Below, one piece after another: positions 14,204 through 64,000 of a stretch of 64,000 nucleotides of DNA. The translations under genes and the position numbers were made by a program. Origin of the DNA: Minutocellus sp. GHC0000111 (taxonomy: Eukaryota); contig OZ361260.1 in NCBI GenBank assembly GCA_977018835.1, positions 2,046,001 through 2,110,000 on the forward strand, in the 5' to 3' direction. Each line of letters opens with the position of its first letter. Position 1 is the first letter of the stretch. A model generated the notes under the pieces. It was not told where the DNA came from, did not search any database, and saw only the letters and a list, made by a program, of their open reading frames with translations.

Positions 14204-14643
14204 AACAGGAACTGCTGGCAGCAGCACCGCACCCCTGACCGAAGATTATGGTAACATGTACCTAGGTACTTGTACAAAAGGAGAAAGTTTCTAGGCCACA
14301 CATCAATAGCAATGTGCATTTAGATATAAATGCATACTGCATGTACATGCACATAGATGAAAATTCGACACTCCTCATTCCTTGCTCGGGTTCTTGCCAT
14401 GCTTGGCCCGATCTTGGTTCCGAGCAAAGGGTCTCTTCCGAATTTTCTTCGATCTTAATCCATTGATGAGCAGGAGCCTCCTATCAACAGCGCTATGAAT
14501 TCTCGTTTCAATTCGATCCAGGACAAGAAGAAAGATACATGTAGACCAAACCTTTTTTGTTGAAGTCGAGGATTGGCTCCTGACCTGCGCGCATCCTTCT
14601 TCATTTCTCCTCTTCAAGATTATACATATGTGTGGCATCAGGC

Positions 14644-20927: not shown

Positions 20928-21735
20928 TGCAACAGATCAGCAATGGCAGACTGAGTTAGGTGTCTACAGTTCTGCTGGATCAAGAGATCCAGCTCATTAA
21001 AAACTCTCACCAAGCCAGCAGCCCGCCTGCTTGGCTCGAGCTAGCATTTCTCTCTCTCTCCTTCTTCTCACTCGATCTCTCACACGCAGGTGCTGTTAGT
21101 CGATCCAGTCACAAGGAGATGACTTGATGGACCGGGACGGGACCATCACGTTCCGGGACACCCCGATGTTTCTAAGCAAGCGCGATGACTCTGTGCGCGC
21201 GACACGATGCAGGAAGGACAGAAAGTGGAGATTGAGGCTGTAAGTGGCCTCGCACAAAAGGGGACGAATTAGCGCAGCGCTTGACGCGCTGATCGACAGC
21301 TTTGTGCCGGCCATCTGCCCAGAGATAAAATTGAACAGGCCACAAAGCACAGTCTGGTCCCTCTCTCCGCAGGGTGCTTCATTGTTGAAGTTCCGCGGGA
21401 GAGCCCGAATCTTGGCTGAGACGTGCGTGTGGAACACCGCGGAACGAAAGCAGCAGCAAAAGACGGCATTGAATGCCGCTTCATTTTTGATCTTTCTTGA
21501 TCATTTTGAGTCGCTTCTGACTCGCATTTCATTCGGAGAAAAACAAGCAGGCGAAGCAAGTGTGTTCCCTTGCTTCTCCTCCTGCATGAAGAGAGAGGAA
21601 GGTGCTTTAGCTCATAATTTTCAGAATTGGATTTTTGCGAAGGCAAATTCCAAGATAATTTTTAGGTAAGCAAGTTTGGTATCAATTGCTGAATAACTTT
21701 ATTGTCTATCGCAGGCAATAGTCCAGCATATTGCA
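20928..21735 (+). repeat. 3' LTR (808 bp)
   Basis: TGCAACA...TATTGCA, preceded by the purine-rich GAGGAGGCGAG. Confidence 0.95.
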
Positions 21736-33659: not shown

Positions 33660-36360
33660 GATTTGTGATGTGGAGTTGTGTGTGTGCACAAGCAAGCACA
33701 CATCGTCCATCATGACTCACCCACCCCCCAGTCTACCAAAGCAGCAACAGCTTGGCCGCATTGATTACAACCCACTTTTATTAACATACACAAAGCCCCT
33801 TATGCTACAACCCATGCACACATGCACAAATGTGGTAGTTGGCAGCAGTGCTGATTAAAACAGCAGCACTGCCAGTGCCATCAAAGGGTGTGATGAGAGC
33901 TGCGCCAGCAAAAGTGAGGCTCTCTCGATGCTGTTCTACACTGTTATCAGATTGGATCTGTTTGCTGTGTAATCAAAAACAACACTAGCTAGTAAACTGT
34001 TACGGAGTGGATTCCGCAATGGACTGTGGAGCACCTTTTTGTCTGGACAAATTCATCGAGTTGCGGGGCAGCAGCGAAAGCACACTCCGTCGCACTCGTC
34101 GCACTCCTCTTCATCGACCAAATCAGACCTAGTCGACTGCATTATTAAGTGATCTCTGCTACGCAGTTGGTCATCAAACGGCCTTGCTTAGTAAACGACT
34201 TGCGTCAACGACCTCAGCAAGTGTTCAGTGTGTGGTGAATGACAGAGACGACCTGCGAGCCTAGACTAGGCAGTGATGGCAGCAGTCGCAAACTGTCTTT
34301 CAATTCGTTTAATCGACAGCAAATGATCTCAGTAAATGATCTTAGTTTAATCGAGTTGTGGTAAACGACCTGAGACCTTCGGCGACGACCTTCGGCAAAC
34401 ATGATCTCGGCAAACGACTTGCGGCAATGATCTCGGTAAACGACCTGATTTTATTCGAGGTGTGGTAAACGACCTCAGTTAATCGATCTTGGTCAACGAC
34501 CTGTGTTAATCGATTTGTTTAACATTTATACCGGGTGTCTTTCAACTCGTTTAATCGATCTTGGTAAATGACCTCTGGTAATCGCTATCAATTTCGTTAA
34601 ACATTGCACCGGGTGTCTTTGACTAAATAATTGATTTTTACCCTCCTAGATCTAATGGACTACATTTGCACATTAAATGATCTCTGCTACGTAGTTGGTC
34701 ATCAAACGACCTTGTAAGAGACCTTACTGAACGACTTGCATTAACGATCTCAGTAAATGTTCAGTGGTAAACGATTTGTGGCAATCAATCTTAGCTAGCT
34801 ACACTGCAGGCCTGCAACAGACTGCAAATGCTAGCCCTGTGTTCATCGCGCGCATCTTGAAGTTCATGGTTGCCAAGCCTTAGCGGTGGCGACCGAGAGA
34901 GAACCACTCACCCTCGCGTCTGTCCGTCGACAGCCGAGGTCCCTTGCAGCACGATAAAACCTTTTCCTGCATTGTGTCCAATCACAGGGTCTTTGCATTC
35001 TTTACGTTTAGAGGCGGCGCGGAAAAAGGCTTTTCAAGAGTTCTCAAGCAAGAAAGCAAGCAGATGGCTCGGAGAACGAAAGCGACAGCTGCTCCGAACG
35101 CGAGGTGAAGAAAGGAAGCAGAGGACAAGAACGACGCGTCGATCGATCCAGCGATCGATTGCTTGCGGACCCGGACCGGGCGTGACGTGTCTCGGCCGGA
35201 CAGCAAGGAGGAAGAAAAGGAGGGCTGCAGCAAGCATCCTTCGATGGGCATCTGCCGGAGTCAAGACGATTGCAGGAGCCGGCTTTGATGACGACGGTGC
35301 AATCCTTTCCCGATCGAAAGAAGATTGCGATCAAGTCTTTCACGGATCTTTCCCTTGCTTCATCGCGTTGCTCCTTTCACGGGCATCCGCACAGCTGACA
35401 GATCACGATCAGGCTGTCCCGGAGGGAACAGGTCAGAAGATGCTAGCGACTGAGCATCGTCGCTAGCTCCGTCGCGATGTCAGCAAAAGGGACGAATGCA
35501 TGGAGAAGATGCCAGTGAAAGCAGAGCTTGATTCACATTGATCTCGAGAAAGATGGCGACAGTCATGGGTCGCTTTGCCACACTTGCTTTCTCGAGTTTG
35601 CTTTGCCGAGTTTCATCGTGCCATGGCACCTAGGCGGCGGAGCGCGGCCTGGTCTTTGTTGGGCTTGCGGCGTGTCGCTGCGCGCTCGTCCACTAGTTTC
35701 CAGGCCTCCTCGGACACCCACGCATTTCTGCGGAACGTCCGCGGCTCCAGTCGCGGCACCTGTGCCTTCACTTGCGGTGAATGCCCTCTCGGTTAGTTAG
35801 TCGTCTTGTGGTGACGACGACCTTTGGCAAATGATCTCGGCAAATGCACTTAGCTACACAGCAGTTGCGGCGGCAAGAGATTTGGCCCATTAATCACACA
35901 CAACACAACAATCAACCTCACAAACAATTTGCTTTTCAAACAATTTGCTGAACGACTTTTGTGGCAAGTGCCCTTGGTGAATCGACTCTGCTTGCAACTC
36001 GCAAGTGAGTGTTCATCGATCTCAGCAAACGAACTAAGTGTTCGGCCAGGGCAGGAGCAGCCCCCTGGACGAGCTTGGTCTTGGCCTCACGCCGCTTGGT
36101 GACTGACTGCCTCACCACCACCCACACCGACGGTCCCGCTGTCGGTGTCGACCGACGGTGCGGTCACGGACTAATTTGGCGGGTGCAACACTCTGGAAAC
36201 GCTCCTTGCTGAGGGCGCACTCGGACGCCATTGACTCAACCCACCAGACTGTGGCGGAGTTGTGTGGTTCCAACCCATTTTCCTGATCTGCTTTTACACT
36301 ACGTGCAGGCACCTTTTCGGGTCCTTTAACATGTTTAACAAATGTTCCGGGTGTTTTAGG
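33660..36360. repeat. Degenerate, apparently non-coding repeat or TE remnant with internal repeats
   Basis: Duplicated block TGATCTCTGCTACG(C/T)AGTTGGTCATCAAACG at about 34151 and 34678, many AAACGAC(C/T)T units, TpA-poor patches and no convincing ORF. Boundaries are approximate. Confidence 0.5.
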
Positions 36361-44488: not shown

Positions 44489-45129
44489 CAAACAGGAGCT
44501 GTCAGTCTTTGCCATCTCCCCTCTTAATTGTTGAAGCCTTCTTCCGCGGGCACAGACATCCCTATGTGTAGATATCTACGTGGGCACGCGGGCACAGACA
44601 TCCCTATGTGTACATCTACGTAGGAATTCCTACATGTAGCTACAGTAGATCGATTGGTTGATTATTATTGTAGATCTTTTTGATCGTTTGCCTTCGAGGA
44701 AAGTTAACCTACATAGCTTGTACTACATGTACATGTGCCGTACCGGTAGGTAGGTAGCACTCTCTGTCGATTTGTAATATGTACTACTTGTACGGAGTAG
44801 GAAGGGTGGTGTTCCCCAGGTGATAAATCGCCGCCCCAGGTGATAATTTGGTTGATTCGACTTTTGATTCAGGATTTTCATGGGAAGTCAATCGAATGAA
44901 TCGAATCCAATCGAATGAATCGCCCGAAATTGGATGATGGACAGACCAAGAGACCGTACATAGGTACCTATAGTAGGTATCATCAACAACCGGTATCACA
45001 TCATGTGTTGGATAAGACGTTGTCCCGTCCTCTTGAAAAGCTGCCGGATACCATACCGCCGAGGTACCACCCCCCTCTCTACTGCGCCCTATTCTCCTGC
45101 AGCACCTCATAGCCAAAGCTTCAACCAGA

Positions 45130-46785
45130 ATGGCAAACTCCAACCCCACACCGACCAACTACATCCGGGCTCTCCCCCCGGACTTCGAGTACACAGCCGA
45201 GGAGCAATCCCTCCTCGACCTGTACGGGACGGTGAAGCTTTACGAGAAGGAGGCGGCCAAATTGCGCGAGGCAGCAGCCAAAGCCAAATTGCAGGCTGCC
45301 GATGAACGGTATCAGCGGGAGCGCGGAGGAAATGCGCCCGGCCAATCCGACGGCGCCGACGACGACACTGGGGGCGGTGCGGCCGCGGCGGCCGCTGCCG
45401 CAAGTAGGAAACGCAAAAAGAAGCGCAAGAAGAAGCAGAAGAGAGTGAAGGACCAGCATACCGGTGGTAACACAGGAGCTGGCGACGACGATGCCGCGTC
45501 AGATGGCGAGGGATCGGATACCTCCGGCGTCGGCTCCAGCGAGGAAGAGTCGGAAGATGAGGGTGGCACAAGTCTATTGGAGAGGAGGGAGGCCAAGCTA
45601 CAACAGATGAGGGACGAGCTCGAAGAGAAGAAGCGGAAGGCCGTGGAAGAGGAGGAGGCGGCAGAAGCCCTGCGATTGCAGCATTTGGAAGAGGCCAACT
45701 CGGCCATATCGCTCATGCCGTCGGTGAAGCGCAAGAAGCGCGAGGAGGGTGGAGACAAGCCTGCCATGTCGCTTATTGCCAACCTTCAGGGGCAGGCCAC
45801 GCCGACACATGAATTCAGCAAGGACCTCAACATGGGCAAGGAGAATTCATCGGGAACCGTTGTGTTCCCGACCAGTATCGATGTGGCATCGTGGACGCCA
45901 CCCGACACGGCATCGAATCCAGCTGACGGTGCGCTTGAAATACAGCTGCCGGACTTTGAGTCGCTCAGGCTACAGGAGGGGTCGAGCAACAACACCATCG
46001 CCATTAAATTTACGGCGCCGTCCGAGTCCAAGCGATTCAGTATCAACATTGCAGCTCCTGGACATCGGGACTACTACGATATTCTGTTCCACTTCAATCC
46101 TCGGCCTCGGCAGAAGGGTGGTCAGCTTGTCATGAATGACAAGCAGGAAGGTATTTGGGGCAGTGCTCTGGAGGTACCGCTATCGACATTACCTCTCATG
46201 TTTGGCGACCACGCCTGTACATTGATTATTCAGATCAATGGTGATGGCTTCGATATCTTTTTGGACGGAGACCATTGTGCGAGATTGGAACACAGGACTC
46301 AGCTGCCTAAGGAGAAGTGCTCGCTGACTCTACAGTTTCCTAGCACGGACGACTATGGTAGCCCCGAGGTATGGACGGTGTATCGAGTTTGGTGGGGGCA
46401 AAAGCCCAGCATGGCCTCGGGAGATATTTCGGGCGTTGCTGGTGTCAACATGTACAGCTCCTTGCACCCGAAGAAGCTATTCGTCAGCGGCCTTTCCAAG
46501 CTCCATTCGCTGCCCGAGGTGGAGCTGCGACGTGCCGAATTGGAACGAGCCTTCCGCAAGTACGGCGGCTCGCATGGCGTCGCTGTTGTTTGCCCTATGA
46601 ATGCTACGTATGCCTTTGTTGAAGTCGAGACAGAGCGCCAGGCCGATCTGGCACTGCAAGAGATGGCATCCAAGTACCGTCTCAACAGGGCACGACGAAC
46701 AAAGCACGAAGCCTTGCAGGAGGAACGAGCTGCCGCAGAGGCTGCCAACGAAGGAAAGCTTCAGGAGAGTACAGAGTGGAACTAA
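45130..46785 (+). CDS. Galectin-like domain plus RRM fusion protein
   Basis: FSINI...LFHFNPR...VMND...WG (galectin fold motif); KKLFVSGL (RNP2-like) and YAFVEVE (RNP1-like); basic NLS-like RKRKKKRKKK. Confidence 0.8.
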   Translation: MANSNPTPTNYIRALPPDFEYTAEEQSLLDLYGTVKLYEKEAAKLREAAAKAKLQAADERYQRERGGNAPGQSDGADDDTGGGAAAAAAAASRKRKKKRKKKQKRVKDQHTGGNTGAGDDDAASDGEGSDTSGVGSSEEESEDEGGTSLLERREAKLQQMRDELEEKKRKAVEEEEAAEALRLQHLEEANSAISLMPSVKRKKREEGGDKPAMSLIANLQGQATPTHEFSKDLNMGKENSSGTVVFPTSIDVASWTPPDTASNPADGALEIQLPDFESLRLQEGSSNNTIAIKFTAPSESKRFSINIAAPGHRDYYDILFHFNPRPRQKGGQLVMNDKQEGIWGSALEVPLSTLPLMFGDHACTLIIQINGDGFDIFLDGDHCARLEHRTQLPKEKCSLTLQFPSTDDYGSPEVWTVYRVWWGQKPSMASGDISGVAGVNMYSSLHPKKLFVSGLSKLHSLPEVELRRAELERAFRKYGGSHGVAVVCPMNATYAFVEVETERQADLALQEMASKYRLNRARRTKHEALQEERAAAEAANEGKLQESTEWN

Positions 46786-47305
46786 ACCTAAAAGGAATAG
46801 TAGATCTACAGTACAAGTAGTGTGCGTGCACGAATTTACCGGTAGTACCGGTATGCTGAAATCCCTCATCATCCAATCTCCACATGCTGTTAGATCTAGT
46901 CGAGTAAGTCATTCTGTAGAGTCTTTCCGTCTTCCGGGTCGGCGGCAGCAACAGCTCAACTGACGACGCATGCCTCATAAATCTTTCTTCAGAGAGAGTA
47001 ACGAACATGGTAAGTCGATGGTATGACGAGTGGTGCTCCCGCGTCGGGGTGGTTTTGGTGAGGAAATGTGCGCGGCACCAGGGGGGACCATCTGGTGCTT
47101 GTCGTGCGTACATGTACATGTATTCTGCGAGTTGTTATCGCTCTTGGGTTGGGTTCTTGCGTTTATCATGTTGTTGGTGCAGATGTCCCGGGCGGCCTCG
47201 AATGTGATGATCGCAGTGATTTATCTTTGTTGTTAGTTAGTTTATACGGAGCGTTGCCCCGGCACTTCGTGCTATTAGCTTTGGTGTGTTTGTGTGCCAT
47301 CCTTT

Positions 47306-48196
47306 ATGCGTAGGTCGAGCATCTCCAGTCAGGGCTCATCCTCTTCAACGGGGGCGAGCATTGAGCTTTCTCGGTTCGTTAACGGGCCATCATTTATTGG
47401 GCGTGAGCTGGCTCGGCGCATCGTGTTGATGTCCACTATACTTGGTCCTGGTAGTGACGGCGCTGCTGAGAATGACGCTTGGTCTGGCGTGGTTATGTCC
47501 CTTCTCGGTCATTCTTGTACAGTCCGATTTTTTCGTTGGGCGGAGAGCACTTATGTTCCTCAGTATTTATCATCAGCGTATTCCGGTCTCAGGAGCAGTC
47601 AATTGGAAGCCGATGGCACGATGAGGAGTATGATGTCCATGTCTTCTTTGTCGGCTGCTTGTAGGGATTTATTCTACATTCGCCAGCTTCTTTGTGAAAT
47701 ATTTGTTCTTTTCTTTCGCGTCTCCGTGCGTGGCAGGGTCGTCGAGCGGTATGCTGATGACATCCAGTGGGGCATGGTGTCAGCTCTTGTGTCCTCGTCG
47801 AGATATCATCGGTACTTGTTTGATCACCGCCTCATGGAGTACGTTGGTTGTCTTCACTTTCGTAGTGATCCATTCGGATCTCGAGTTTTTCTGCGAGGAA
47901 GCACATTCTTGCATTTTATCTGTCGCCAGAATCATGAGTATCTTCCTCGTGTAATATCAGAATATCACCGTTTTAATGTTCAATTTGGTGGTGATATTCA
48001 CGCTCGGCAGAGGCATCACAAGTATGGTTCTCCTGCTCATCATTTTCGTAGATTCCATGATATTCACACTCATGGGAATCACAGCGACATGTTTGCATCT
48101 GGATCATCGACCTTCGAACTGTTGCGGGAATTATTCAGGGGCGGTGAGGCTTTTAATAGGTCTATATATGACGGGGATGATTATGGTCAGGTTTAG
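47306..48196 (+). CDS. Hypothetical protein (putative element cargo)
   Basis: ORF of about 296 aa with T-rich codon usage unlike host genes and a His-rich C-terminal part; no recognised domain. Confidence 0.5.
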   Translation: MRRSSISSQGSSSSTGASIELSRFVNGPSFIGRELARRIVLMSTILGPGSDGAAENDAWSGVVMSLLGHSCTVRFFRWAESTYVPQYLSSAYSGLRSSQLEADGTMRSMMSMSSLSAACRDLFYIRQLLCEIFVLFFRVSVRGRVVERYADDIQWGMVSALVSSSRYHRYLFDHRLMEYVGCLHFRSDPFGSRVFLRGSTFLHFICRQNHEYLPRVISEYHRFNVQFGGDIHARQRHHKYGSPAHHFRRFHDIHTHGNHSDMFASGSSTFELLRELFRGGEAFNRSIYDGDDYGQV

Positions 48197-48325
48197 CATG
48201 CTGCATAAGTGAGTGTGGTCTTCATCTCTCCGTTTTATGTGCACGTGCTATGTTCATCTTAGGGTGGTATTTTATTGGGCACGTGCTCATATATAATATA
48301 TATAATTTTTTTCTCTAATATGTAA

Positions 48326-51300
48326 TCATATACCTGAAGGACTATCTTCATCACCATTGGATTTTGCCTCTTCATTGTTCAGATCATTTCCAAGATTTCG
48401 ATTTTGTACAGGGGAAGCATGATCTCCATTTTGATCTTGGACAGCAATATCACTAGTCCCAGCTGAAGTTGGTGTTTGGGACGAGTCCTGCGTTTCATAC
48501 ATTCCTAGCTCCGAGCAGGAGTGGGGAGTCACCATTTTGACTCTGGGCGACTTGATCCTTTTTGCTGTGGCGTTGAGGTCCTTTGCCAACGCTCTTCTCC
48601 ATTTGTTTAGGTGGGTGAGGATTGTCACCACGTCGTTGGGATTTTCTTGGACTAACTTTTTCAGGTCGCTCTTACTAAGTTTCCTGAACGGATCATGTCT
48701 CAGTTCCTCGGCAGCAGCGGTCATCACCCCGACGGTCACGTCTTTGATCGTATCCTTTTCTTCCATTTTCCTACGGTTGCTGTGGGGATTTGCATCACCA
48801 TCACGGAGTGCTTTGGCGTACCTTATAACTTGTTGCATTTTGGGACTATGGCTAGTATCACGGGCCGGTGGCGACTCTTGAGCGGCATCACCTGCGACTA
48901 CTTCCTCATTTTGTCGCGGTGATGACTTCATTCTTTTTGCTCGTCTTGGCTGGTCTTGGCCCCCGACTTGTTCCTCGGAATTATCTTGATTCTCATTCGC
49001 GTCGTCAGCATTTTGCCTTGCACTGTTATCTGCATTGGTTGGTTTTGTTGTTAATTTTGACGTTGGTGTAGGCGATCGTCGTCGTTTGGCTGCTGTCGAT
49101 TGGAAAATAGAAATATTAAATTTGAGTAAGGGATACCAGGAAAGAGAAATTATCGAAGAATACCACGGGGTATTCAAAAGGAAGAGGCGAGCTTCAATTA
49201 TTCATATCGTACCTTTTGACCCTGGATCTTTGGCTTTCCATAATCGTTGAGCAAGATTGGGATCATTCTTGTCCTCCTCAGCGGGCTCGTCAATTAGCAG
49301 TCTCACCATGGCTGCGAATCGGAATTCTTTCCTGAGGTACAATATCTCGTCACTTGTTGACTTGAATCCAACAATGCAAGTTTTATCGTCGAGGTCGGTG
49401 TCCGTTGGAATCTGATCTCGTCTCATCGTTGACGACGAGAAGAGGAACCAATCGTCTTCGTTCTTGAGATCCTTGATTCTCTTCTTCATTGCGTCGCTCT
49501 GCAGATATCCTGCGTCTAGTGCTTCCCTCAGCACGGAGACGTATGTAGCCATTGCTAATGATAGCACGTCCGTTGGGGGAGAATTCGATCTGGACGTCCA
49601 CTCTGTCCTGTTCTTGTAGGCTGTGGCAAGGATCGTATCTGTCATGTGATCTCTTTTCTCGGCCGATGCTTCGTTGTGACGATCATTCTGATAAGCTCGA
49701 TATCCCTGCACTAGCATCGATTTCTCTGCCGACCAGTTTGAGACCTCAACCGTCGTGAATCCTTTGGTCGCCAGGGCAACTTCGGTGAATTCCTTGGTTA
49801 TTTCTGACAGAGCATTGTAGAAGATGTGATTCCTGATGGCCTCCAATTTATATGTCGGCAGATTATCGAGGGTGCTGTCGATCACTCCCTTGAGCTTCTT
49901 TGTTCCTCTTGCGCCTTTGCTCTGTTTCCCGGCGATAGTTGATGCCACGTTCCGCAGAAACGCCCATATAAGTTCAAGCTTGTTGTACGAAGCCATCTTT
50001 GGATCCTGAGAAAGTGCCATTTGGAAGGTGATGAGGGCGGAGGGGTTGAGGGCCATCATCGATGCAAGATCAAGTGTTCCTCTGATTTCTTTGGTCAGCG
50101 TGAAGGTGCTCTTTTGCTTCGGGGCCTCGAATTTGTGAACTCCATACGATATTCTGTGACCAATTGCGTTATGGAATTTGGCGTCGTCATCACAGTCGGG
50201 ATCCTTTTGATATCCTCGAGCCAGAAGCTTGATCTGCGCTACCACCATTTCGAGTTTCTTTTCTGGCGTTACTTCATCGCCATTTGTCTTTACCTTCGAG
50301 ATTTCTTCTCTTCCCCAGAGCGAGGTCGCAGTTAGATTCTTTGCGAGGGCGAAAGCCGCTGCCCCCCTAACGGACATGAGTGTTCCTTCGAGAGTACCAC
50401 CACTCTCCATGAGACATGATTCTACGGTGTGATGCTTAATTTCCTTGGCCTGGCTGGCAGCATTGAGATCTTTGAGCATGTTGCTGAGTTGCGAGAAATT
50501 GGTTTGTCCCGATGATTGCTGAGCAGCACGAGCATTAAGGTCACTGACTGCTCTGAGGTGGTCTACATCTCGTGTGAAATGAAGAACCGTGACATTGACC
50601 TTGTCGAGGATCTGTGAATCAGCGTGCAACACGTTGGATCCTTGATTATGGTAGCATTCCATTTGCTTCCGCAGCGTCGGGTTGGTCACGTCAAAGGAGC
50701 GATTGCTATCATCACCATATGGCAAACCGAATGTTTTCATCCACGATGCGAGACCACGGTGCTGGCCATCAATGTTGCAACCAATTAAATTGTAACTCAT
50801 TGACGTTGGAAAGGTTGATCCGAGACGACGGCGAGACAAGTAAATCACCATGTCATACCGCGCCCGCAAGACATAGTGAGTTCTTTTCATCCCTGTATAT
50901 CGGTCCAAGTCTCGAAGAAGAGGTTCCCTATGCGCAAAGAGAGGAAATATTCGTGAGTGTTCAAATTCTGTTTGAATACCTCTTGGTATTTAACCAGAAA
51001 ATTAAAATCAGCACTTACCCTTCGATCTCACTATTCTTGTCCTTCTCTATGAATGATTCGATGCTCGCAATGTCTTTTGCCAAGCCTTCGGCAATTTTTG
51101 AGCACTCGTCATGATAATCCTGGTTCCAATTCTCCTCTATTCTTCCCTTTTCAATAGTTTCCTGGATGTATTTATCGGCTTCTTCATAGCTTCCTGCTGA
51201 CAGCATGACATAATACAGTACCTTGGGTCCTGAACACTCGACCACGTGCCGCTTTACTGTTGACTCGCCACTCGCGACGCCGTATTCTGCATCGAACACA

Positions 51301-53941
51301 AGATCCTCCTCATCATTATCTGCTTCATTGCCAACGGCTCCGATCATCAGCGTTGCAGGTTGGAATGTAAGCTGCTCCTTCGCCTCATTTCTGCTCCGGA
51401 ACATGTCCACTGCGATGTCTTCGGCCTTGGCCCGCTGCACTAGTTGCTGATTACAGCCTCTGAGTTTCAATCGCTGCGAGGAAGTCTTCGGGAAAGGTAA
51501 CGACACATGGGCCAACAGGACAATTGGCCAATCCCCTCTCGAAGCAATGCTTGTTTTTAAATCAACTTTCGTCGTGCTTGCGGTTATGTTTGCGAGATGA
51601 TCGACATCTTTAAATTCATCTTCATCGTCACTATCATTGTCACTCTTGCCGCTGCCCTCACTACTCTGCTCGTCTCTATCGCTGCCACTCGAGTCGTCGT
51701 TATTGGATGCCTCGCTGTTGGCTTCTTCGGCTTCATCGTCAGCGTTATCGATATTATCAATAGAGTCGTCGTTAACTGGAGGTGCATTGAAGTCCTCTTC
51801 TTCCATCGGTAGGGCTTCCTGATCATTGGTGTTTCCTTCGGTACTAACCTCGGCGTTATCGACGGCACCATGAGGCCTGTCAGTTTCCAGAAGTAGCGTT
51901 TCTCGGCTGGCCATTTTTCGACTCTCCCGCCTTGGTGTAGCAGCGTCGACGAATAGCCTCGAGCGTTCAGTCTCGCTCATTTCTTTATCTGAGGCGTCAT
52001 CGCTGAGTTCGTCAAGATTTAGAAAGGTATCCTTTTCGAGCGTATCAAGATGGGCTTTTGTTTCCTCACCCACCCTCGCGAAATGGGCTTGTAGATAGTC
52101 ATTAAGGATGGCCGCCCCATTAGGAGCCACACGGTCAATTTCATCCAATACTTTGGCCACTTTCATCAACTCTGTCTTTGCGACAAATCCTTTACTTTCC
52201 CAGAGGGGCGTAATATTCTGCCATCTGCCCAATCCAACTTCATACCATATGTCATACTTCAAGAGACATTTGACAGCAGGTCTCGAGCGCTTGGCAAAGA
52301 GTAGTTTCATTACTCCGATAATATAGCTCTGGGTGTTCATGTTCACCTCTTTATTCCTAATCAGTTGGACATTGTCTTTCAAGAACTGGCCCAGGTAATA
52401 GGGAGTCATGGCATTATATCCGACCCAACTACCAGTTGATTTTGTGTTCGGACCGATCGTTGGAAGAAATTCATGAGATCGAAAGAGGTCGTGGATGGAT
52501 TGCCGCTCTTCTCCGCTTGTCGCAAATCGTAAGTCAAGATCATTTGAAATAGGGCCCTCTGTCAATTCTCCAAGAGCAAGAGTCGCCAATAGCCCTTGTA
52601 CAAGGAAAAGATAGACGAGATATCTCTTTTCCTTATTGTCCGCGAAAACATCAGGACCAACATGATCGTCCTCACTGAGAAGTGTTGGTACCGTAGCCCT
52701 GAGATGGTCAATTGCGTTAGTCAGAAATAAATCTATCAACTGAGGAAGCGAATCTCGATGAATGCAAACAAAGAATTCCGCTCCGCGTCTTTTGAGTTCT
52801 CCGCCAATGAAAGGATGGTAACTGGCAAAAAGTTTATCGATAACGTCATCGTCACCGTCCCTATTGATGTAGTCTGGCACGATGCCAGAGTCAATTATGT
52901 CCATGCATTTCAGGATACGTTATTATTGGAAACGAATGGATAAAATGCAAGCGCGGCAGAGGGGTCTTCTATCCACAGGTTGTCGAGGTTCTCCACTTTC
53001 CCCCCTGGTCGCCGATCACGGACGAGTTCACATTCTAACAGGGTCTTTGTTGGTTCGCTGACGTCTCGCTTTCTAAGCAACGTCTTCATTATCCCGAAGA
53101 GAAAGCTCTGCACGTAATTTGCGTCACGACGATAAGTCTGATATTGAGAGTTTGTGTCACCATGATGAGAAGGGAGCACTCCATAGTAAAATCCCCACCA
53201 TTCATGATTGAGATCCTCGGTGAATTTTCCGAGCGTCAGTTCACCGGCGAAACCCTCGTTATCCATTATCTTCATCATTATTCTAACGTCTTCGCTGCGC
53301 ATGATGAGATTACGTCGATCCGGATTTAGGTCATCCAAGTTGTCATCTACCTCGCCGTAAGTGCGATAGGCATGAATGCCCTGCGAGACGAGTGAATACA
53401 CCAGCATTTTGAAAGCTCCAGTGCTCCCAAATCCTTCAGTGTTCAATCTGATACAAGCGCCCCTATCGTTTCCATCACCAGCGGCACCAATATCTTCACC
53501 ATTAATTGCAGGGTCAGTGGCCCCGAAGTACTTCAAAAGAGCACGAAGAAAAAGGACCGAGAGCTTGACCGTTGAAGCCTCGCCAATGCATACACATATC
53601 TTTCCATTATGATTGAGAAACGTTGCTTCGATACCGGCAGCAGTCAACAGTTGCTTAATTCCTTCATCTGGGAGTTGGATTTGGATTTGCTATGTCACGT
53701 AAATAAAACAATGTATAAGTCAAAGGAGAGTTAGATCTCGTTTTGGGTCTTCCGAATGAATACTGGGGGGTATTCAAAAGGAAGAACGTCATATAATCAT
53801 CATGATTACGTCATGGAAATAAATCAGCACGAAAAAAAAAGAAAAATTGTTCACCTTGAAGGGAAATATTGCTACCGCTGGATGATTTTGATTGCAACTC
53901 AAAATCACACACCAATGGACAATGATTGTCGACGTTCCCTT
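48326..53941 (-). CDS. Very large (>1700 aa) multi-exon hypothetical protein, divergent from RepHel
   Basis: Phase-compatible introns 53854-53690, 51018-50928 and 49212-49093 join the minus-strand ORFs, with one frameshift near 52915. Fragmented minus-strand ORFs up to about 54940 may be its 5' part. Confidence 0.7.
49158..49175. promoter_or_regulatory. Intronic palindrome GAATAC-cacggg-GTATTC
   Basis: Inside intron 49093-49212. Confidence 0.7.
50974..50991. promoter_or_regulatory. Intronic palindrome GAATAC-ctcttg-GTATTt
   Basis: Inside intron 50928-51018; one mismatch. Confidence 0.6.
53758..53775. promoter_or_regulatory. Intronic palindrome GAATAC-tggggg-GTATTC
   Basis: Inside intron 53690-53854; shares the flank AAAAGGAAGA with the 49158 copy. 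Confidence 0.7.
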
Positions 53942-55019
53942 TCATGTGTCATCAGTGCGGGGAATTCCCTTTCGCTCTTGGTCAGTCGAAAATATGTGTG
54001 GATCTGATATCAATCGCATGCTCATCCACCGAAATGAATACAGAAATAGTTGATACTTACATCGTTGCTCCCAGCCTTCGCCGCACGCCGAGAGTTGCCG
54101 CTGTCACCAGCATCCTCGCTTCCATCTGGGGGATCGCCAACCGTGGCCATGGTCACTTCTTTGTTACGAGGCGGATGATGAGTGGACGTCAATATGAGCG
54201 ATGTATCGTTCGTTGTACGAAGAAGCACCTTACTTTGCGATCGGTATCAGATTTTTTTTTTCCAAGTTTTGTGAGCGAATGGTCCGGTATTTTCTCGGAA
54301 TTCGCAGAAATCTTGATTCGTTCGACCGGATGTCAGAATAGAAAAGCCCTTTGGTGTCGCCGTATCTTCATGTTCATTCTCGCACGTGTATTCATCTTTC
54401 ATTATTTGAGAAAAGTGATAAGTGCCAGTCCATCTCAACGATTCGACCAACGCTCTTGGCAAGAGCGTCCCATCGAAAGAAAACATTGCTCCGAGGTCGC
54501 CATATTCCACGGAAGATAAGCGTAAGTGCCCTTCGCGTTTGCGTCACTCAGTCGTGGCGCCGCTTTTATTCAGTGCGACTTGTACATTTATTGCTCGGGA
54601 TCGTCGCCGCGTCTCGGTTTCGTTCCAATGAATCGTATGATCATGTCAAGATGATTACTCTGTTCATTTGTAATGCTGGAAACGAGTCGCCCATTGCGCT
54701 TGAATGGTCGCGCAGTGCAGGTGATCGATCTTTACCATCGGGTCCCAAGCTTTCATCACCATCGTTGTCGGCGATGGGCAGGAGCGGCATGCATAAGCGG
54801 CATACCGATGGCGCATCGCATGGCGCGTGGCATGGTGGCGGTTCCTTATTTTTGACGCACGAAGGAAAGACATTATTTTGGGAGTATTTTTCCCTTTAAA
54901 TTCCGGGAGGTGTTCATTCGGAATGCCCGAAAAGTCCACACATCTGCACGTGCAACTGTGATTTTACACCTTTCTAGTTCTTATGATGTTAGTTGTTACT
55001 ATGTTTCTTCCAGCTGCTA

Positions 55020-56662
55020 TGTCAAGCACTGGCTCTCCTAGCAGGAACCTGCGCAGCAGCAAAAGCTCTGGTGCTGCTGCTGCTGCTGCTGTGTGGCTGT
55101 CGCTGCTGCTGGTAGGTAGCGGTGACGACAGCAAGCAAGAAGAGCAGCTGTTCTTCAGCAAAAAAGAACAAGAGTGACAGTGTTTCTGCTCTTGTGGTCT
55201 CTAAGAAGAGAGCTGTTGCTGATGATCAGCGTGGTGAGTCAAGCCCTGTTGCCAAGAAGAAAACAGGTGATGATTGATGATTCTGCTCTCTCTCTCTATC
55301 TGCCACCTCACCTGTGCCGAGCTTGGTGGACTTAAGCAAGAAGAAGCTAGCTGCTGTCACAGCCTTCGAAAATGGCGTTGACGTCAGCTACTTTGGCAAT
55401 TGGTATAGTGCTTGTCAGATTAGCACTGGCAGCAGGGTTCCTGTGCAGGAGCTAAAGGATGAAAGCAACCCTGCCCGTGTGTTCAGTGCCATTGACGATC
55501 GATGCTGGCAAGCGGTTCACTCTTGATGCTTGCTATGACTTGGTGCATGGCGTGGCCACTGCCTGGGCTCTTGAAGCTCGGTCCAAGGGCAGCAAGGACT
55601 GGGAGAACATTTCTGTGGTTCTTCACAGCAGTTACCCTGTGAGGCAATGAGTGCCATTCAGGAGAGTGGACTGGAGCTACAGTGTGTGTTTGTTCCTTGT
55701 GTTGGCAAAGACGATGCTGTGAGCACGAGTGCCAGTGGTGCTCTTGAAACCCCCAAGCGCACCCCCAAAGCTGAAGGAGGTGGCGCTAGTGCTGGGAAAG
55801 TTGCTGCTGCTCTTGCTCCTCCTGCTGCTGTTGTTGCCAGTCAGAGCACTGTTGCCATCAGTTCACCTTCAAAGTCACCACAAAAACAGCTCAACCTGGA
55901 CAGTCTTGACATCAAGGTGACCAAGGACGTTGTCCAGAAGTACAAGAGTGCCAAGGAGGCCCGTGGTGGTGGAGCCAGTGGCTACAAGCTCACAGTGAAC
56001 CTCTCTGGTGTGTGGTCACAACCTCAGGCAGAGCCAAAGTTGTGTGGGTGTCGTCAACCTCGTAGACAGGCGCAATGCCCCTTACTGGATTCTTAAGCCT
56101 GATGTTCTCATTGACACTCTTCAAGCTTTGACCGAGAACCCCCATCTTGCGTGCCTCTCTGACCTTGCAAACAGTGCCAAAGAGGTTCCTTTGCGCGACA
56201 TTCCTTGCGGTGCTGATGTTGGGAAGCTGTCCTACTCCAAGACTGGGTCAGCTTTTCCAATCACAACCACCATGTTTTCCCTGGACGTGTCAGAGAAGAT
56301 TCGCCCTCCTGCCGAGGAGGCTGTTTGCCTGGTGCAAATGTTGCACGAAGTTGTGACATCCAAAGTGTTCAAGGAGGCCTACACTGACATGATGGTGAAC
56401 GGCGGTGGGCGGTGGGCCAAGCTTGGCTCTCAGATTGAGCAGGCAGGACAACCACTCCTGTTGGGTCGTTTTCAAGGGGTGCAACCTGGAGGTTGTTGAT
56501 CCTTCACCCCTGAACACAGTTTTGATGGACAAAGACACCAAGGAAGCCATGTCCTTCTTGACTGACGGCGTTCCCCCTGGACGCTGGGCTGCCGATGCTT
56601 CGTTGCGGAAGATTGCTTACAAGGATTGGAGCATTCCAGCTGGTACGTTTGCGGAGGAGTGA
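55020..56662 (+). pseudogene. Degraded accessory gene of the Helitron-like element
   Basis: Chain of overlapping plus-strand ORFs (55314-56662) with protein-like composition, broken by frameshifts, in a TpA/CpG-depleted tract. Confidence 0.5.
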
Positions 56663-58112
56663 GGAAGTGAAACTTTGTTCTCAGGGTGGCTGCTTTCTGG
56701 TGGATTAAAAAACTTTGCATTGTCTTAGGTAAGGGCTTGATCACACTTCAACTACAAAAAACACCAAACACACAAACACAAACACAAACCACTGTCAAAA
56801 AAATGAAAAACGTTAAGCGCAAAAGTCATGAAGGAGGTCAAACACTCAGTCACAAATTCAGTCAGACCCCATTTTGCAATCAAAAAATCAAAAACTGTAA
56901 TCAAACTACATAGTGATCAAAAAAGCCCCTCTTGTTTGCACCTGTTTGCTCCTCACTGTGTGCTTCAACTTCTGCTAGTGCACCTCTCACTCATTTTTGT
57001 GTTCTTCACCTCCAGTTTTGGCACACATGGCATCTCTATCAGTGATGCCAGACAGGAGAAGTCTGTTCTTCCCCCCCCTTTCAGGCCTCAAAAAGCAATT
57101 GCTGTGTCAACTCCCTGTGCTCGTGCACTCGCCTAGTGTTGACGAGGTGTCAATGGCTTGCAGCTCAACCAGCGTGTTCCAGCAACAACACAGGAGGCTC
57201 TTCAAGATGATGAGAAGCTGCATTGTTTCCTTAAATGTTGCCGAGATTGGGAGCACAGTGGAGCTGAGCAACACAGGGAACACTGTTGCAAAGCCCTCAG
57301 TTTTTGTGACAGCCCCATCTTGGTGCTTGGTGCTTGAAGTCAGCCCTCTTGGTGTGCCATCAAAGGGGTTTAGCTACTTTTTCATGGACAAGAAGGTAAA
57401 GGAGAAGATGAGCTTTGCTCTTTTGCACCAGACGCTAAAGCGTGGGCTGGCAAGGGCTTCCCTCAGGATGAAGCTGATGCCAGCAGCGCACAGCCCATGC
57501 CTGGTGAGGCTGTCTGCCAGCTTGGTTGCCGGCCCCAAAGAAGTTTGGTCAATCAAGGTCCGGTCACCCTTTGGATCGCCATTTGAGGTAAAGGTGAAAA
57601 GGACCTGCAGTGGGCGGAACTTGTGGCTTCAAGTTGTGCTTGCCACTGAGAAGCTAGCAGGACGGGGCACAGTGGACATTGACTCTCTTTATGATGGGAA
57701 CCGATACGACTGTCCCCTGCCACTCTGCTGCTTGGGGTTGAGCAATGGATGCACAGTGGACGCAATTGACAAAAAAGACCAAGAGTGGGTGATCTTCATT
57801 AAGTGCCCTGATGGCTCAGTCATCGCCACGCCGGCTAGCAAGGAAGAAAGTTGCATTGATTTACATCGCAGAGTGGCAGCAATGCTGGCAACTCAACTGC
57901 CGGTGTCGCCATCTGACGTGTACACGACGTTTGGGTCAAAGCTACTAGAGCACACAAAGGCAAAGTTGTGGGAGACAGGAATGCACAATGGATCAACTGT
58001 GATGGCAAACATTCGTCTTCGCGGTGGCGTCTGCGTTCCACACACCGGCAATCTCAAGCGGAGGCAAAATCAGGTAAATACCAATCACCCGATTCATGGC
58101 TTGGTTCCGAAA

Positions 58113-58129
58113 GAATACCCCCTGGTTTC
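58113..58129. promoter_or_regulatory. Degenerate intronic palindrome GAATAC-cccctg-GT-TTC
   Basis: Inside intron 58074-58219; one base missing in the right arm. Confidence 0.5.
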
Positions 58130-61021
58130 AAAAAGAACCTACACTAGCTGATGATCACAGCCCCTTACTGCTAGCACGCTAACTTTCAATTTTAAAATTA
58201 TTTTTTACACAATGAACAGGTATCAAAACAAGAAAAGCAGCGACTGAAAAATGCTAGACGACACTTAGAACAAATTAAAAGGAAGGAGAGCATACCCAGG
58301 ATGAACATAAAGCCACCGCATCATGACCGTCTTCGCGACTATGATGCTCTTCATGTGCAGCAGCTATGGGAAGACGCAATAGAGTTGGACGTTGATTTGA
58401 GTGCTTGCGATCCATATCGTGCACTGAACAATGACAAGTACAAAATCGCCATTGGGCAAGCCACCAAGGTAATATCGGCAGCGAGGAGGAAAAGAGACGC
58501 CCACTTCAGGAAGGAAGATATGTACGCAATTAATCGCCAAGCATTCCGAGCATCAACCTATGCCGAACAGAAGGTACTCGAATCGCTCATGCGATTTGAA
58601 TCGAGAATGATGCAACTTCACCATGATGTTTGCTCTTTGTGCAATGAGTGCAGCATTGATATGACTGTAAACAAGAATAATGTCTGTCGAAGGTGTGCAA
58701 ATAAACGGACGAAAAATGATTATACGAAAGAAAATGCCATGATCCCACTGTGGATTGATGATGCGGGTAAGGAGCATCTAGAGGTTCCTCCGGAACTAGA
58801 ATGCCTCACTATTGCCGAGAAATTATTGATCCAGCGCGTCTCACCGCTCGTGCCAATACATCACATTAAAAATGGCAATCTTGGAATAAAGGGGCACGTT
58901 TGCTCCTTTATGCAAAATATCGAAGATCTAGCTTCGTCGCTCCCAAAATTACCTCACCAAGTCAAAGCAATACGGATGATTCGAACTCACGAAAATAGCG
59001 ACGGTCTTCCGGTCACGACAATGTACACTGTGAATCGTCGTCGCGTCATGAATGCTCTCCTCTGGCTCGTAAAGCACCACTCTGATTATAGGCAAGCCTA
59101 CGAGAACGGTGAATTGACTATTGATGAAACAAATCTTGACTGGATGCCCGCCGGGATAGATGAGGCTGATCTCTTATCCGTTACTGACATAGTGCACACC
59201 GAAAAAAATGATATAGTCTCGCTGATACCGAGGAGACTGGGGTGTCCAATTCCCAATGTATCGATCCCCTGATGATTGATAATGATGAAGAGGAATGCTC
59301 AGGTTTCTCGTGTAAAGAGGCAACATCGCTCACCAACGAAAATCAAGAAGCAATGATAAATGCTTTGAAGGAGGCAGCAGGCGAGCAGAGCGACGTATCA
59401 AAGCTTGATTGGCCACAGACCAGCTATCCCGATGCCATTTCGGAATATTCCAATGTACGCATCTTCACGAATGCATTCCCTTGGCTTTTCCCGGGAGGAA
59501 CAGGTGATTTCCGCGATCTTGACCGTGAATCAGACATAGACGTAGCAAATTGGGCACAACATCTTCTACGGCAGGCCGATGGAAGATTTCAGCGAGACAA
59601 GCTCTGGGGATTTTTTGTGTATAACTACTGCCAAAGACAGCGTAACAATTCTAGCGGAGGATACTTCATCAACAATCACATCAGCGATCCGCCCAAATCT
59701 CTCGATGAATTGAAGGAACAGCTAAGGAAGGGCGACTCTTCCTTTGTTAGCAAACTCATTTTCTACAGCAAGCGAGTTCGTGGATCAGATTCATACTGGC
59801 GGTCAGAACGCTCAAAATTATACACATGGATTTCTCACCACATAGAAGCCAATCACGGAGCGCCAGACATATTCATGACCCTCTCCTGTGCGGAATATTT
59901 TTGGCCGGATGCAATACGGCTCCTAGAAGAACGCATATGGATCGCGGAAGGGAGGAAAATCGTAAACGGAAATCGATGCTTTCGCGACGGACGGAAGATT
60001 GACCTCAGCAATAATAGGGTCGATCGAAACAGAGCCGTCAATGACTATGCCCTCGTAATTCAACAATATTTCATCAAACGTGCAGAGAATTTCTTGAACA
60101 CCGTCGGAAAGGAATTACTCGGCATAAAATATTATTGGGGCCGAATGGAATTTGCCAAAGGACGGGGGCAGATACACATCCATCTTCTTGGTATATTGGA
60201 CAAGACCATGACAAGAGACCTCCAGGACCAGCTAAATGACGGAGGCAGAAGTCACGCCGATCAGGCCAAACTCGTTGGGGACTGGGCAGAACGGGTCTTC
60301 GGCATGACTTCATCCATCGACAGGAATAGCGAGTGAGTATATGTGCAAATTGAATCAAAAACCAACATGATAAGACGCGACAAGGTCTCATGATCCCTCT
60401 TCCTCCTTTCTCGACAGGCCTGCTGACGAAAGCGGTAACATGGGAGCAAGCAAACAACGTCTCGGCGAGGTTTCCGACTATCGTAAGGACGAGGCTCGAC
60501 TCTGTTTTGAATGCCAACATCATAAATGCGGGAGCTACTGCATGCGAAACCATCGTGCGAAGAAAAATAAAGAATCAGCAAATTCCCCTCCCAGCACACA
60601 CGAGACGAATTCAAGCACCGCAAAACCAGATAAACGACGATATTGCCGTGCCGGAACAGGATACGAGAAGACCCCAAATGCTTGCGATACACCAGGATTC
60701 CAATTACGTTCAGACCATGCCATCACCCGTGATGATCGTGATTTCCTGAAGCTCGAAATGAAGCGGAACAATCTTCGCATGATTCAGACCCCACTCAACG
60801 TTCTGAGAGGATGGCGTGGCAATTGTGATATCAAAGTGTTATTATACGACTGTCACGACAGCGAACCAACGCCAGAGGACATAGCCGAAGTTACCGATTA
60901 TTTTTTCGCTTACGCAAAGGAAACGAGACACTGGCCACCGAACGCGACACTTTTACAGCCATCGTCAATCGGTGAGTGCTGCGTTGGATGCAAATGTGCC
61001 AAAACGGGACCAATTCCATTT

Positions 61022-61039
61022 GAATACCCGCGAGTATTC
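61022..61039. promoter_or_regulatory. Intronic palindrome (TTT)GAATAC-ccgcga-GTATTC(AAA)
   Basis: Inside intron 60972-61128; 9-bp arms. Confidence 0.72.
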
Positions 61040-63228
61040 AAAAAGAATCTGATCCCGCGTCTATTTCCGTTCATTGTGTCATTTTCACGCTGTAACGCGC
61101 ATGCTCAATCCCCTGATTCGACTTCCAGTGCTGAGGAGGTGTCAGGAAATATTGATGATGTAATCACATTGGCCAGGAAGCTGCTCAACAGAGCCGTGGT
61201 CAGTAGACTTGTGCCAAAACAAGAGTGCATGGTGGAGCTAGACAAGCTTCCCTTGATCCTGTGCACGGAGACCATCGAGTCATCAATTATTAGTAGTTTG
61301 TCCGGTAGCTACAAGCTCACATCAGACACCCACAATGGACTGGTTGCAAAATACAGAAAAATAGCTGCCAAGAACCCTAACCTTTCGCTCAGTGACCTGT
61401 TCCAACAACAAATTGGCAGCAAGAACACTGAGAAAGCTGTCATTCCACATTGGATAGGAGGGAGGGGGCAACCAACATTCCCAGTCTCTCACTAAGGACT
61501 ACACCTAGGTACATGCCAGAATGACGCTGCTAGTGCACAGGCCATGGAGAGCATCAACACCTCCCCGGCTAAGCAAAGAGCAATGGATCAAAGAGTTCAA
61601 CAACTTTCTTTCTGACTCGTGCTGCCCCCAGTCAGTCAAGATTGCGTACGCCAGGGTGAGAGAGCGCAAAGTGAAGAAACGCCACAGTGAGCCAACAGCA
61701 GAAGATGAAGAATGCCATGACTACGAGGCTCACGGAGACATGGATGATGAAACCAGAGACATTCTCAACTTGGTCAAAACCAATGCAGTCAGCAACGACC
61801 CAGGAGTGACCATTGGGGACTTCAAGTTTGACAGAGGGGGCTAAACTATGACTGGTCTCAGAGAATGTTCCCTGCAAGAGATAGACGCCATGCTTGAAGG
61901 GGGGTCCTGGCTAGAAGAAGCAGTCAGCTCAAAAGATGCAACAGAATGGACACCTTTTACCACTGAAGTAGATGGAAAGCCCATGGCAATTGATGCGTCA
62001 ATGGTGAAAAATGACCAGCAGGAGTTGCTTCTGACAGTGATGAGCAAGGTCAAGGAGGAGTGGGTGGAGTGCGCCACTTCAAGTGATGTCAACAAAGCCA
62101 GGTCTTTCAAGCCACTCTCTACTTGACGGTGCAAGGCTGCGCAGGATCAGGCAAGAGCTTCTTCATTAAATGCTTGGTGAACACAGTGAGGGAGGTTTTA
62201 GGAGAGAAAAACGTCATCCATGTGGTTGGCCCCACCGGTGCAGCAGCATGGTCAGTGGGAGGACAGACAATGCACAGAAAGTTTGGAATAAACCCTCACT
62301 CTCCATCATCTTTCCCTTCAGAAAAGCAAAGAGAGACAATGATGAAAGACAACAGAGTGACAGTTGTTTACGTGCTTGATGAAAGGAGCATGTACACAGC
62401 AGACAACCTTGGGGCTGCTTAGAGGAATCTTGCAGCAACTGCTCATGGAGGAGGCCACGAAGGAGAGCTGTTCGGGGGGGTGCCCATCTTTCTGCTTGTG
62501 GGGGATGACTACCAGCTGCCCCCACCACCAACAAACACACAAAAGGGGGCATTTGACACGGTTGGAGGGCAGCCTTCACACTCACAAAGGCAAACTGGAG
62601 TTGCTGCATCAGGAGCACAGCTTTTTCTCGACACATCTGAAAAGTGCATGGAACTCAAGACAATCAAGCGTCAAAAGTCAGATCAGGTTGAACTCGTCAG
62701 CATGCTGGGAAGGCTTCGGTCAGAGGACACCCAACACCAGCAGATGCAGACAAGCTAATGCAGTGCCACCTCACCAACTTTGGAAATGCAGAAGTGGAAG
62801 CCATCACAAGCAGCACAGGAACAACCATCCATGCATCTTTTTGCAAAAAAGGCGCCAAGGGATGAGTTCAACTACCAGAAGCTACAAAAGGTGCCCAGTT
62901 CAAGCAACCCAGTGGCCCTGGTGAAAACCAAGTGGGAGTCCACATCAGGGAAGGCAGCTGTCCGCAAGGCACACTTTCCAAACCCACCAGCAAATGCAAC
63001 AGTTCTTAGCAGAGGCGCCATGGTCTGCCTGGCAGACCGAAACTTTGAACCAGAGTGGGGACTCTTCAACAACAGCGTGGGAGAGGTAGAAGAAATTATT
63101 TTCGAAGAAGGAAGAAATCCAAACACAGGAGACCAACCATGCTACGTGGCAGTGAAGTTCCCTCAGAGTGCAGCGGTCCGGTCTGTCTGGGACCCCCTGA
63201 AGCCAAAGGTAAGAACTAGATTCTTGAT

Positions 63229-63246
63229 GAATACCGAGGGGTGTTC
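63229..63246. promoter_or_regulatory. Intronic palindrome GAATAC-cgaggg-GTgTTC
   Basis: Inside intron 63209-63345; the single mismatch is a TA->TG change. Confidence 0.62.
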
Positions 63247-64000
63247 TTTTGGAAGCCAAGCCGTGAGTCAGGTCATTGGTTGTTTAACTGCACCAGTTTA
63301 ACTCACACCCAACAACCTCCTGCCTTTCCCCCCTCATGTGAAAAGGTCGTTCCAATTCCAATGACAGCCAGCCATGATGTGCAAAATCAAGTGCTGCTGC
63401 ACAAAGCCACTTGCTGCCCACTCACACTGTCATTTGCAAAAACGTGCCACACATTCCAAGGACAGTCAGCAGGACCAGTGAGCCATGGCCAGCAACCAAA
63501 TGCGGTGGACCGGGTGATTGTGGACCCAGGAGACAAAGGAATGGAGGGAAAGAACTCAGCAGGGCTGCTCTACATGGCAGTGTCAAGAGAGCAACCACCA
63601 TATTGGCGACGATGCTAGCAACAACAGCAGTGAGCAGAGAGGGAGACGGCAAGACTCAGCAATCTACTTCACTGGGCACAACATGACTCGAAACAGAGTG
63701 CTGAATCTGACACTTAAAAAAAGATGGGTCAGAGCACCAAAGAGTGCAGTTGAGACGAAAGTTGGCATCCCGAGTGGAAGAAAACACAGTGGGGATGCAG
63801 CTGGCTGAAGGAGAAACACCAGAGACAGTGCTGAGCTGGTGCAGGAACTTCCGTGCGAGCAAAGACACCCTTGATGAAGCTGCGAGCAACTGGAGCTGGC
63901 GCAGGAACCTGAACAGAGACCTCAATTACTAGCAAACCAAGACAAAATTCAATTGAACACCAAATGAACTCAATGAGAAACGAGTGCTATGAAGTGGTGT

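Follow-up and report, generated by a model that had tools for sequence, protein, structure and literature searches.

In a 64,000-nt stretch of DNA from Minutocellus sp. GHC0000111 (contig OZ361260.1, positions 2,046,001 to 2,110,000; hereafter the window, numbered from its first letter), a large Helitron carries seven copies of a 34-bp dyad, three of which lie close to the edges between hypermutated and intact tracts of the element. The Helitron comprises a plus-strand RepHel gene, a broken middle gene and a minus-strand giant gene, and shows the HUH Rep domain fused to a PIF1 helicase that marks such elements (Helitron_like_N, E 2e-21; DUF6570, E 2.5e-21; PIF1, E 2.3e-09). The explanation which we consider best, and on which our judgement is evenly poised, is a putative ParB-like loading of the giant protein, which contains a DGQHR motif, onto the seven dyads, sparing the adjoining stretches. 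Its distinctive part is the match between the sites and the hypermutation edges.

Under this explanation, an element-encoded dimer would bind the dyads as double-stranded DNA sites, the giant protein loading on them as ParB does on parS. Bound there, the protein would sustain transcription of its own gene and the Rep segment and hold both clear of the silenced, mutable state, so that the adjoining stretches would escape host silencing and TpA/CpG hypermutation, whilst an antisense RNA would damp RepHel.

The dyad and its copies

A preliminary description of this DNA, made from the letters alone, had reported the palindrome GAATAC-N6-GTATTC at six positions, three perfect and three with one change, each inside an intron of two divergent Helitron genes and none in host-gene introns or other transposable elements. 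The core palindrome and its fixed spacing are well founded: at no more than one mismatch it occurs five times in the window against 0.09 expected, a number reached by none of 100 shuffled windows, and among spacings from 0 to 15 a perfect match was found only at a spacer of 6 (one single-mismatch palindrome with a spacer of 9 is located outside the element). These five sites, exact at 49158, 53758 and 61022 and with one mismatch at 50974 and 63229, all fall within 49158-63246. The sixth, at 58113, has a 1-nt deletion in the window copy and not the substitution that had been described. The deleted base is present in the RNA contigs X7 and X15 and is retained in all seven other copies in which the predicted protein runs on into that intron, the read-through peptide being EYPLVFKK in six and EHPLVFKK in one; in most other copies this site is perfect.

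The unit itself is larger than was described. A repeat finder showed that outer TTCY and RGAA arms are kept as well, giving a 34-bp dyad, TTCY-N4-GAATAC-N6-GTATTC-N4-RGAA (half-site TTCY-NNWT-GAATAC-C), and it also recovered a seventh copy which is not intronic, lying between the giant gene start (54150) and the middle gene (Table 1). With a symmetric matrix built from 13 half-sites, the six complete sites score 36-44 bits and the deleted site 20.8, the best other position in the window scoring 11.0; when sites were left out of the matrix in turn, every complete site still ranked first, with site 7 at 31.4 bits. The scan, which was made over all 64 kb rather than intron by intron, found no site outside the element, in agreement with the reported absence from host introns and other transposable elements, and the 34-mer has no match in the 47 kb of sequence flanking the element. 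The spacers vary as had been stated, all seven differing in sequence. The dyads stand singly, 1.1-3.2 kb apart, and all seven are in non-coding DNA (non-coding share 0.15). Sites 3 and 7 form one pair of inverted twins and sites 4 and 6 another, each alike over about 46 bp, and sites were thus copied within the element. From the differences in run X5, the family ancestor of site 7 was probably one mismatch from the consensus.

Intron calls were compared with RNA contigs from four runs, in which strand and transcript ends are not given directly. Four of the six site-bearing introns were confirmed: giant-gene introns 2 and 3 are spliced in three of the runs, and giant-gene intron 1 and RepHel intron 1 (58074-58219) in two. 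The bounds of giant-gene intron 1 follow the RNA joints, a donor at 53854 having been dropped for the RNA-supported 54060; the resulting 371-nt joint has a short side, as do the two antisense joints described below (29-30 nt). The claim that every copy is intronic fares less well for RepHel, of which introns 2-4, including the site-bearing introns 3 and 4, were spliced in none of the four runs. Introns 2 and 3 rest on GT-AG ends and on the 994-aa frame restored through exons 2-4, and intron 4 on frame continuity.

Family proteins of at least 90% identity are found on 23 large contigs of differing length, which come from one assembly or from several, and a single near-identical consensus emerges from the run contigs of several studies. 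The Helitron family multiplied recently. A relative of 93-94% identity spans site 5 in run X19. The window copy is damaged by small indels: measured against the family consensus, its depleted domains contain many extra stretches of 1-7 nt, and in its intact domains small deletions prevail. The extra letters may be assembly error. A strict search for the 34-bp pattern gave no matches in viral contigs, one in prokaryote genomes and six in metagenome contigs, in collections that contain little eukaryotic DNA and whose low counts are no evidence of absence. The six metagenome matches are all single copies among prokaryote-like open reading frames (ORFs) without similarity to the element, and we read them and the prokaryote match as chance. 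Relatives of the Rep protein were found neither in viral contigs nor in phages. Run X1 also contains, over 58953-62525, a further RepHel family, present at about a third of the depth, whose differences fall mostly on every third base.

Mutation domains, their edges and the minus-strand transcripts

Segmentation of 44-64 kb by CG+TA against TG+CA, taking the solution best by the Bayesian information criterion, places edges at 55000, 58012 and 61100 and so divides the element into alternating intact and depleted domains (Table 1). The edges hardly move when CG or AT is used by itself, and TA by itself shifts the last to 61531; ApT is depleted along with TpA and CpG. The three edges lie 77, 93 and 53 bp from sites 7, 4 and 5, respectively, with the site on the intact side each time, and the chance of three random edges all falling within 93 bp of a site is p = 0.0007. 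The edges at 58012 and 61100 bear out the earlier statement that the sites at 58113 and 61022 bracket the un-hypermutated Rep segment.

The depletion is family-wide, because few substitutions separate the consensus contigs from the window, and it still continues among copies. In the other copies, Tyr to Cys/His changes are about 20-fold commoner in the depleted domains, where they affect 12 of 61 alignment cells and 4 of 9 columns, than in the intact ones, where 6 of 662 cells and 4 of 64 columns are affected (column-level p = 0.006; the copies are not independent, and the p value at cell level is overstated). The count leaves out the site-4 Tyr column and columns with fewer than three cells, and draws on the cluster members listed, at most 15 per cluster. 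These changes carry the TpA>CpA/TpG signature of Bigelowiella natans, in which hypermutation of integrated viral DNA is confined to foreign DNA (10.64898/2026.01.13.699255). Whole viral regions are affected there, whereas here hit and spared domains alternate in one transposon, with loss of CpG and ApT too.

That putative binding at the dyads sets the domain edges is a tentative proposal, towards which we lean less than halfway, and a number of observations tell against it. The edges are also within 62 bp of non-coding blocks generally (p = 0.008), and the two associations are not fully separable. Minus-strand transcripts cover the same ground as the two intact domains, and the edges could therefore arise without the sites. 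At sites 7, 4 and 5 only one side is protected, and a freely sliding clamp offers no account of this. In site 7, a TA has become TG in the window and a TA has become CA in run X5. The preliminary description had further read the TpAs retained in the intron at 63209-63345 as fitting local protection; this failed, as its site 6 lies in a depleted domain, with a TA>TG change fixed in one arm in 7/7 copies and a second TpA hit in 3/7. Finally, no long-term selection is readable from the compared copies, which are nearly identical and may recur in more than one assembly, and no motif-bearing element that is both diverged and independent was readable.

Inside Rep, two minus-strand GT-AG introns (58684-58990 and 59722-59838) have joints in three of the four RNA runs, and therefore an antisense, non-coding, spliced RNA covers the Rep catalytic segment. 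Its longest ORF is 166 aa, and it is likely to be a brake on RepHel. The main rival to the ParB-like explanation is that transcription alone defines the intact domains: the sites would be ordinary promoter or operator elements, bound by a host factor or an element protein, and minus-strand transcription would keep the intact domains from the mutator. Both intact domains match minus-strand spliced transcripts, sites 7 and 5 stand at the upstream ends of minus-strand units and the protection is one-sided, all as this rival would have it; for the domains themselves, minus-strand transcription could account equally well. However, site 4 is at the downstream edge of the antisense unit, sites 1-3 are deep inside the giant gene, the 34-mer is without a match in the flanks, and the contigs cannot show starts or strand. 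Taken as a whole we consider this account unlikely, albeit one to be taken seriously. A bound protein might also set the edges indirectly, if it drove the two minus-strand transcripts whose starts are near sites 7 and 5.

Nature of the sites and the candidate binder

It is probable that some protein binds the dyads, a judgement drawn from their pattern of conservation. Across the 13 half-sites, positions 1-3 and 9-15 hold 1.4-2.0 bits and positions 5-6 only 0.1-0.5 bits, so that each half-site keeps two patches of identity about 10 bp, or about one helical turn, apart. Two such patches in each half are the footprint of a large dimer reading successive grooves. Identity is kept without pairing (positions 5-6 pair in one of the six complete sites and position 4 in three), the asymmetric A-tract follows the site on the plus strand in minus-strand genes (sites 1 and 3) and plus-strand genes (sites 4 and 5) alike, and one copy is intergenic; because of these three features the dyads fit a dimeric DNA-binding protein rather than a splicing hairpin. 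The preliminary description had left a choice between an element-specific DNA site and a pre-mRNA hairpin, and it is the former, in the form of a putative dimeric-protein site, that the conservation pattern, the intergenic copy, the orientation and the domain edges favour.

There is also a resemblance to recombination sites. Read as 14-6-14, the dyads have the geometry of tyrosine-recombinase sites, or might serve synapsis or be bound by RepHel so that so large an element stays together in rolling-circle transposition; their length equals the 34 bp of loxP and FRT, about 46 bp are common to each pair of inverted twins (3/7 and 4/6), and DNA contigs break at sites 7 and 4. Tyrosine-recombinase sites, however, have identical spacers in partner sites and a cognate recombinase, whereas here the seven spacers are all different, no recombinase family was found in the element proteins tested, and none of the joints listed in eight runs ends at a site. 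We therefore regard this as improbable. The twins show that patches were copied inside the element, and would suit a view of the dyads as neutral leftovers of such local copying, or of an introner or other tiny mobile element that made the introns. Introner elements give introns that are homologous along their length and have terminal repeats. Here the intron flanks are unrelated in most of 15 pairs (R1/R4 is clear, z 8.0, and two are weak, z 3.1 and 2.2), and the introns, being non-homologous beyond the site in most pairs, are therefore not introners; in addition there are no terminal repeats, the site is internal at varying positions, and neutral decay would not yield the two-patch profile, all of which renders a neutral origin quite improbable. 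The pre-mRNA hairpin co-regulating the splicing of both genes can be set aside as very improbable: six of the seven copies are intronic and a stem of 7-9 bp (about -4 to -12 kcal/mol on the transcribed strand) can form, but identity rather than pairing is kept, neither compensatory change nor covariation between the arms is found among the compared sites, the distance from the site to the splice donor (12-277 nt) and acceptor (38-91 nt) varies, one copy is outside introns, and Rfam gives no match.

As for the protein that would bind the dyads, the putative candidate is the giant protein with a ParB-type fold, an assignment that we rate a little short of even. Exon 3 of its gene has homologues at 22-37% identity, among which DGQHR is the best-kept feature, the GQHR part being present in all six homologues that cover the region; GxxR is the phosphate motif of ParB Box II (PMC12704722). 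No Pfam, NCBIfam, PHROG or PADLOC family matches the giant protein, word-based searches with it returned nothing or only family copies, and sequence searches of the PDB gave nothing significant. Neither a methyltransferase nor a 2-oxoglutarate (2OG) oxygenase domain was found by eye and Pfam in its N-terminal half. Membership of the DGQHR/DndB family (TIGR03187, PF14072), which has a QR pair and FxxxN besides DGQHR (PMC4619093), was considered and rejected, since QR and FxxxN are not conserved and there is no Pfam or NCBIfam match.

As to the candidate ParB-type fold, a single-sequence model had a predicted local distance difference test score (pLDDT) of 34, and much of the DGQHR region was modelled at a pLDDT below 50; Foldseek found no match at E<=0.001, and the best VIA-align Z was 5.2. 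Against phage DGQHR proteins, hhalign gave 90.9% compared with at most 89.2% for 20 column-shuffled controls, hidden Markov model (HMM) scores were within the shuffled range, and the QR and FxxxN motifs of that family are not kept in the homologue alignment. RepHel or the middle protein could be the putative binder instead.

In a language-model comparison, the nearest feature clusters of the homologue P0002 are DUF3723 proteins (score 0.91), which are encoded by accessory genes of the giant fungal Starships and have no known function (10.1101/2021.12.13.472469). Both are thus accessory proteins of giant transposons. Only 122-133 of 256 features are common, however, the PF12520 (DUF3723) HMM gives no match, and the homologue P0008 has no usable neighbour match; a putative kinship to DUF3723 is therefore to be treated as a lead only.

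Comparable systems and further features

The preliminary description had likened the element to the Arabidopsis VANDAL transposons, Mutator elements for which binding by VANC and demethylation have been shown by experiment (PMC5735166). This is a fair functional analogy in that, in both, introns and upstream non-coding DNA carry a motif peculiar to the element, and local escape from silencing goes with it. The VANC motif, however, is a 9-bp non-palindromic sequence in dense same-orientation tandem repeats (PMC5735166), as opposed to the widely separated single dyads seen here; the element was accordingly rejected as a VANDAL/VANC system, having no dense tandem arrays of a short same-orientation motif. 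The ParB-like accessory genes of algal giant transposons with inverted repeats are the closer precedent. In the red alga Bostrychia, the ParB-like accessory gene PAG3 of Plavaka lies beside inverted-repeat arrays, and self-binding has been proposed, untested (10.1101/2025.02.11.637652). Common to both are a giant eukaryotic transposon, an accessory gene with a ParB-like segment (a candidate one here) and inverted repeats in the element. Plavaka differs in being an EnSpm-type DDE element with tandem arrays beside PAG3 and a 2OG-oxygenase partner domain, whereas we find a Helitron in which no effector domain is recognised and the dyads, scattered singly over introns and promoter, are linked to the edges of mutation domains. 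Sola1-1_Ec32 of Ectocarpus, likewise a giant stramenopile element (about 21 kb) with an accessory gene on the strand opposite the transposase, has a ParB-methyltransferase gene (PMC12477816); no amino-methyltransferase domain was found here, and no sites are described in the accessible part of that report.

Bacterial systems offer a working model. VirB is a ParB-type anti-silencing clamp (PMC10770331), and both VirB at virS and KorB at OB load at specific sites and control transcription or silencing at a distance on their own mobile DNA (PMC10770331, PMC11790492); they differ in being bacterial, with a canonical ParB-CTPase, a helix-turn-helix and short sites. As in a parS-like system, several dyads are carried by the element itself, without exception in non-coding DNA. 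The widest version of the explanation, a Helitron with its own ParB/parS-like clamp that would fence the giant gene and Rep from a TpA-editing/CpG-methylation defence, and is possibly a distant relative of Starship DUF3723, is speculative and in our view doubtful. No such Helitron system was found in the literature on Helitrons with ParB or on diatom introns (main texts, partly titles only), nor any work joining DUF3723 and ParB. If true, the Helitron would be countering a eukaryotic hypermutation system that has only recently been described, and this counter-defence could be read from the DNA sequence alone. Algal ParB-like accessory genes have been suspected of self-binding, but with neither a site nor a read-out defined. 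In this element the site is a precise 34 bp, the candidate binder is transcribed, and the sharp TpA/CpG hypermutation edges next to the sites serve as an internal read-out, such that self-binding and the rule by which TpA hypermutation finds its targets both become directly testable in a recently multiplied family.

The element's left end is at about 47.0-47.1 kb, with a 7-bp stem at 47076-47099. Helitron termini have a 5' TC and a 3' hairpin with CTRR, or Helitron2 ends. RNA contigs run 4.7-5.3 kb beyond 63946 with other letters, and therefore the full element is longer than the window copy shows. The giant gene has a 7-nt deletion at 52918 in the window copy. At the end of RepHel exon 1 there is a ubiquitin-like segment (about 57790-58027) containing IRLRGG; it was identified by eye, gives no Pfam match and suggests a cleavable ubiquitin fusion. 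Two RNA-contig joints, 54235-56846 and 56572-57114, are without splice ends and suggest internal deletion derivatives; one removes site 7 and the middle gene, and such a derivative would be a natural test of the edge model.

Table 1. Positions of the dyads, genes, mutation domains and other features in the window
Feature	Position	Strand	Context and remarks
Dyad site 1	49150..49183, core 49158-49175		Giant-gene intron 3 (49093-49212); intron spliced in 3/4 RNA runs
Dyad site 2	50966..50999		Giant-gene intron 2 (50928-51018); intron spliced in 3/4 RNA runs
Dyad site 3	53750..53783		Giant-gene intron 1 (53690-54060); 371-nt joint in 2/4 RNA runs
Dyad site 4	58105..58137		RepHel intron 1 (58074-58219); 1-nt deletion only in this copy; 93 bp from 58012 edge
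Dyad site 5	61014..61047		RepHel intron 3 (60972-61128); 53 bp from 61100 edge
Dyad site 6	63221..63254		RepHel intron 4 (63209-63345); TpA-decayed, in depleted domain; inverted twin of site 4
Dyad site 7	54890..54923		Intergenic, divergent promoter region; inverted twin (about 46 bp) of site 3; 77 bp from 55000 edge
Giant accessory gene	48326..54150	-	1,749 aa; exons 54061-54150, 51019-53689, 49213-50927, 48326-49092
DGQHR (GxxR) motif	50756..50770	-	Candidate ParB/Srx-type nucleotide site; kept in 6/6 covering homologues, one as EGQHR
Middle accessory gene	55020..56660, ends approximate	+	Frameshifted here; matches no known family
RepHel gene	57027..63900, right end approximate	+	DUF6570, Helitron_like_N, PIF1; four introns; frameshifted here
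Antisense introns of non-coding RNA across Rep (two)	58684..59838	-	RNA joints in 3/4 runs
Intact domain over giant gene	47100..55000
Depleted (hypermutated) domain 1	55002..58010		CpG/TpA/ApT; CG+TA share 0.18 vs 0.42
Intact domain over Rep	58014..61098		Bracketed by sites 4 and 5
Depleted domain 2 (helicase)	61100..64000		CG+TA share 0.17

Elsewhere in the window, the host gene adjoining the left end of the element (45037-46785) encodes a galectin domain and an RRM. A cluster of related direct repeats of 27-53 bp, at 34144-36358 in a region poor in long ORFs, is probably another repeat element. The long terminal repeats (LTRs) of a Gypsy-type element, at 14642-15399 and 20926-21735, differ by 11 substitutions, five at TpA and two at CpG, and by 10 short insertions, most of which are micro-duplications and every one of which is in the right LTR.

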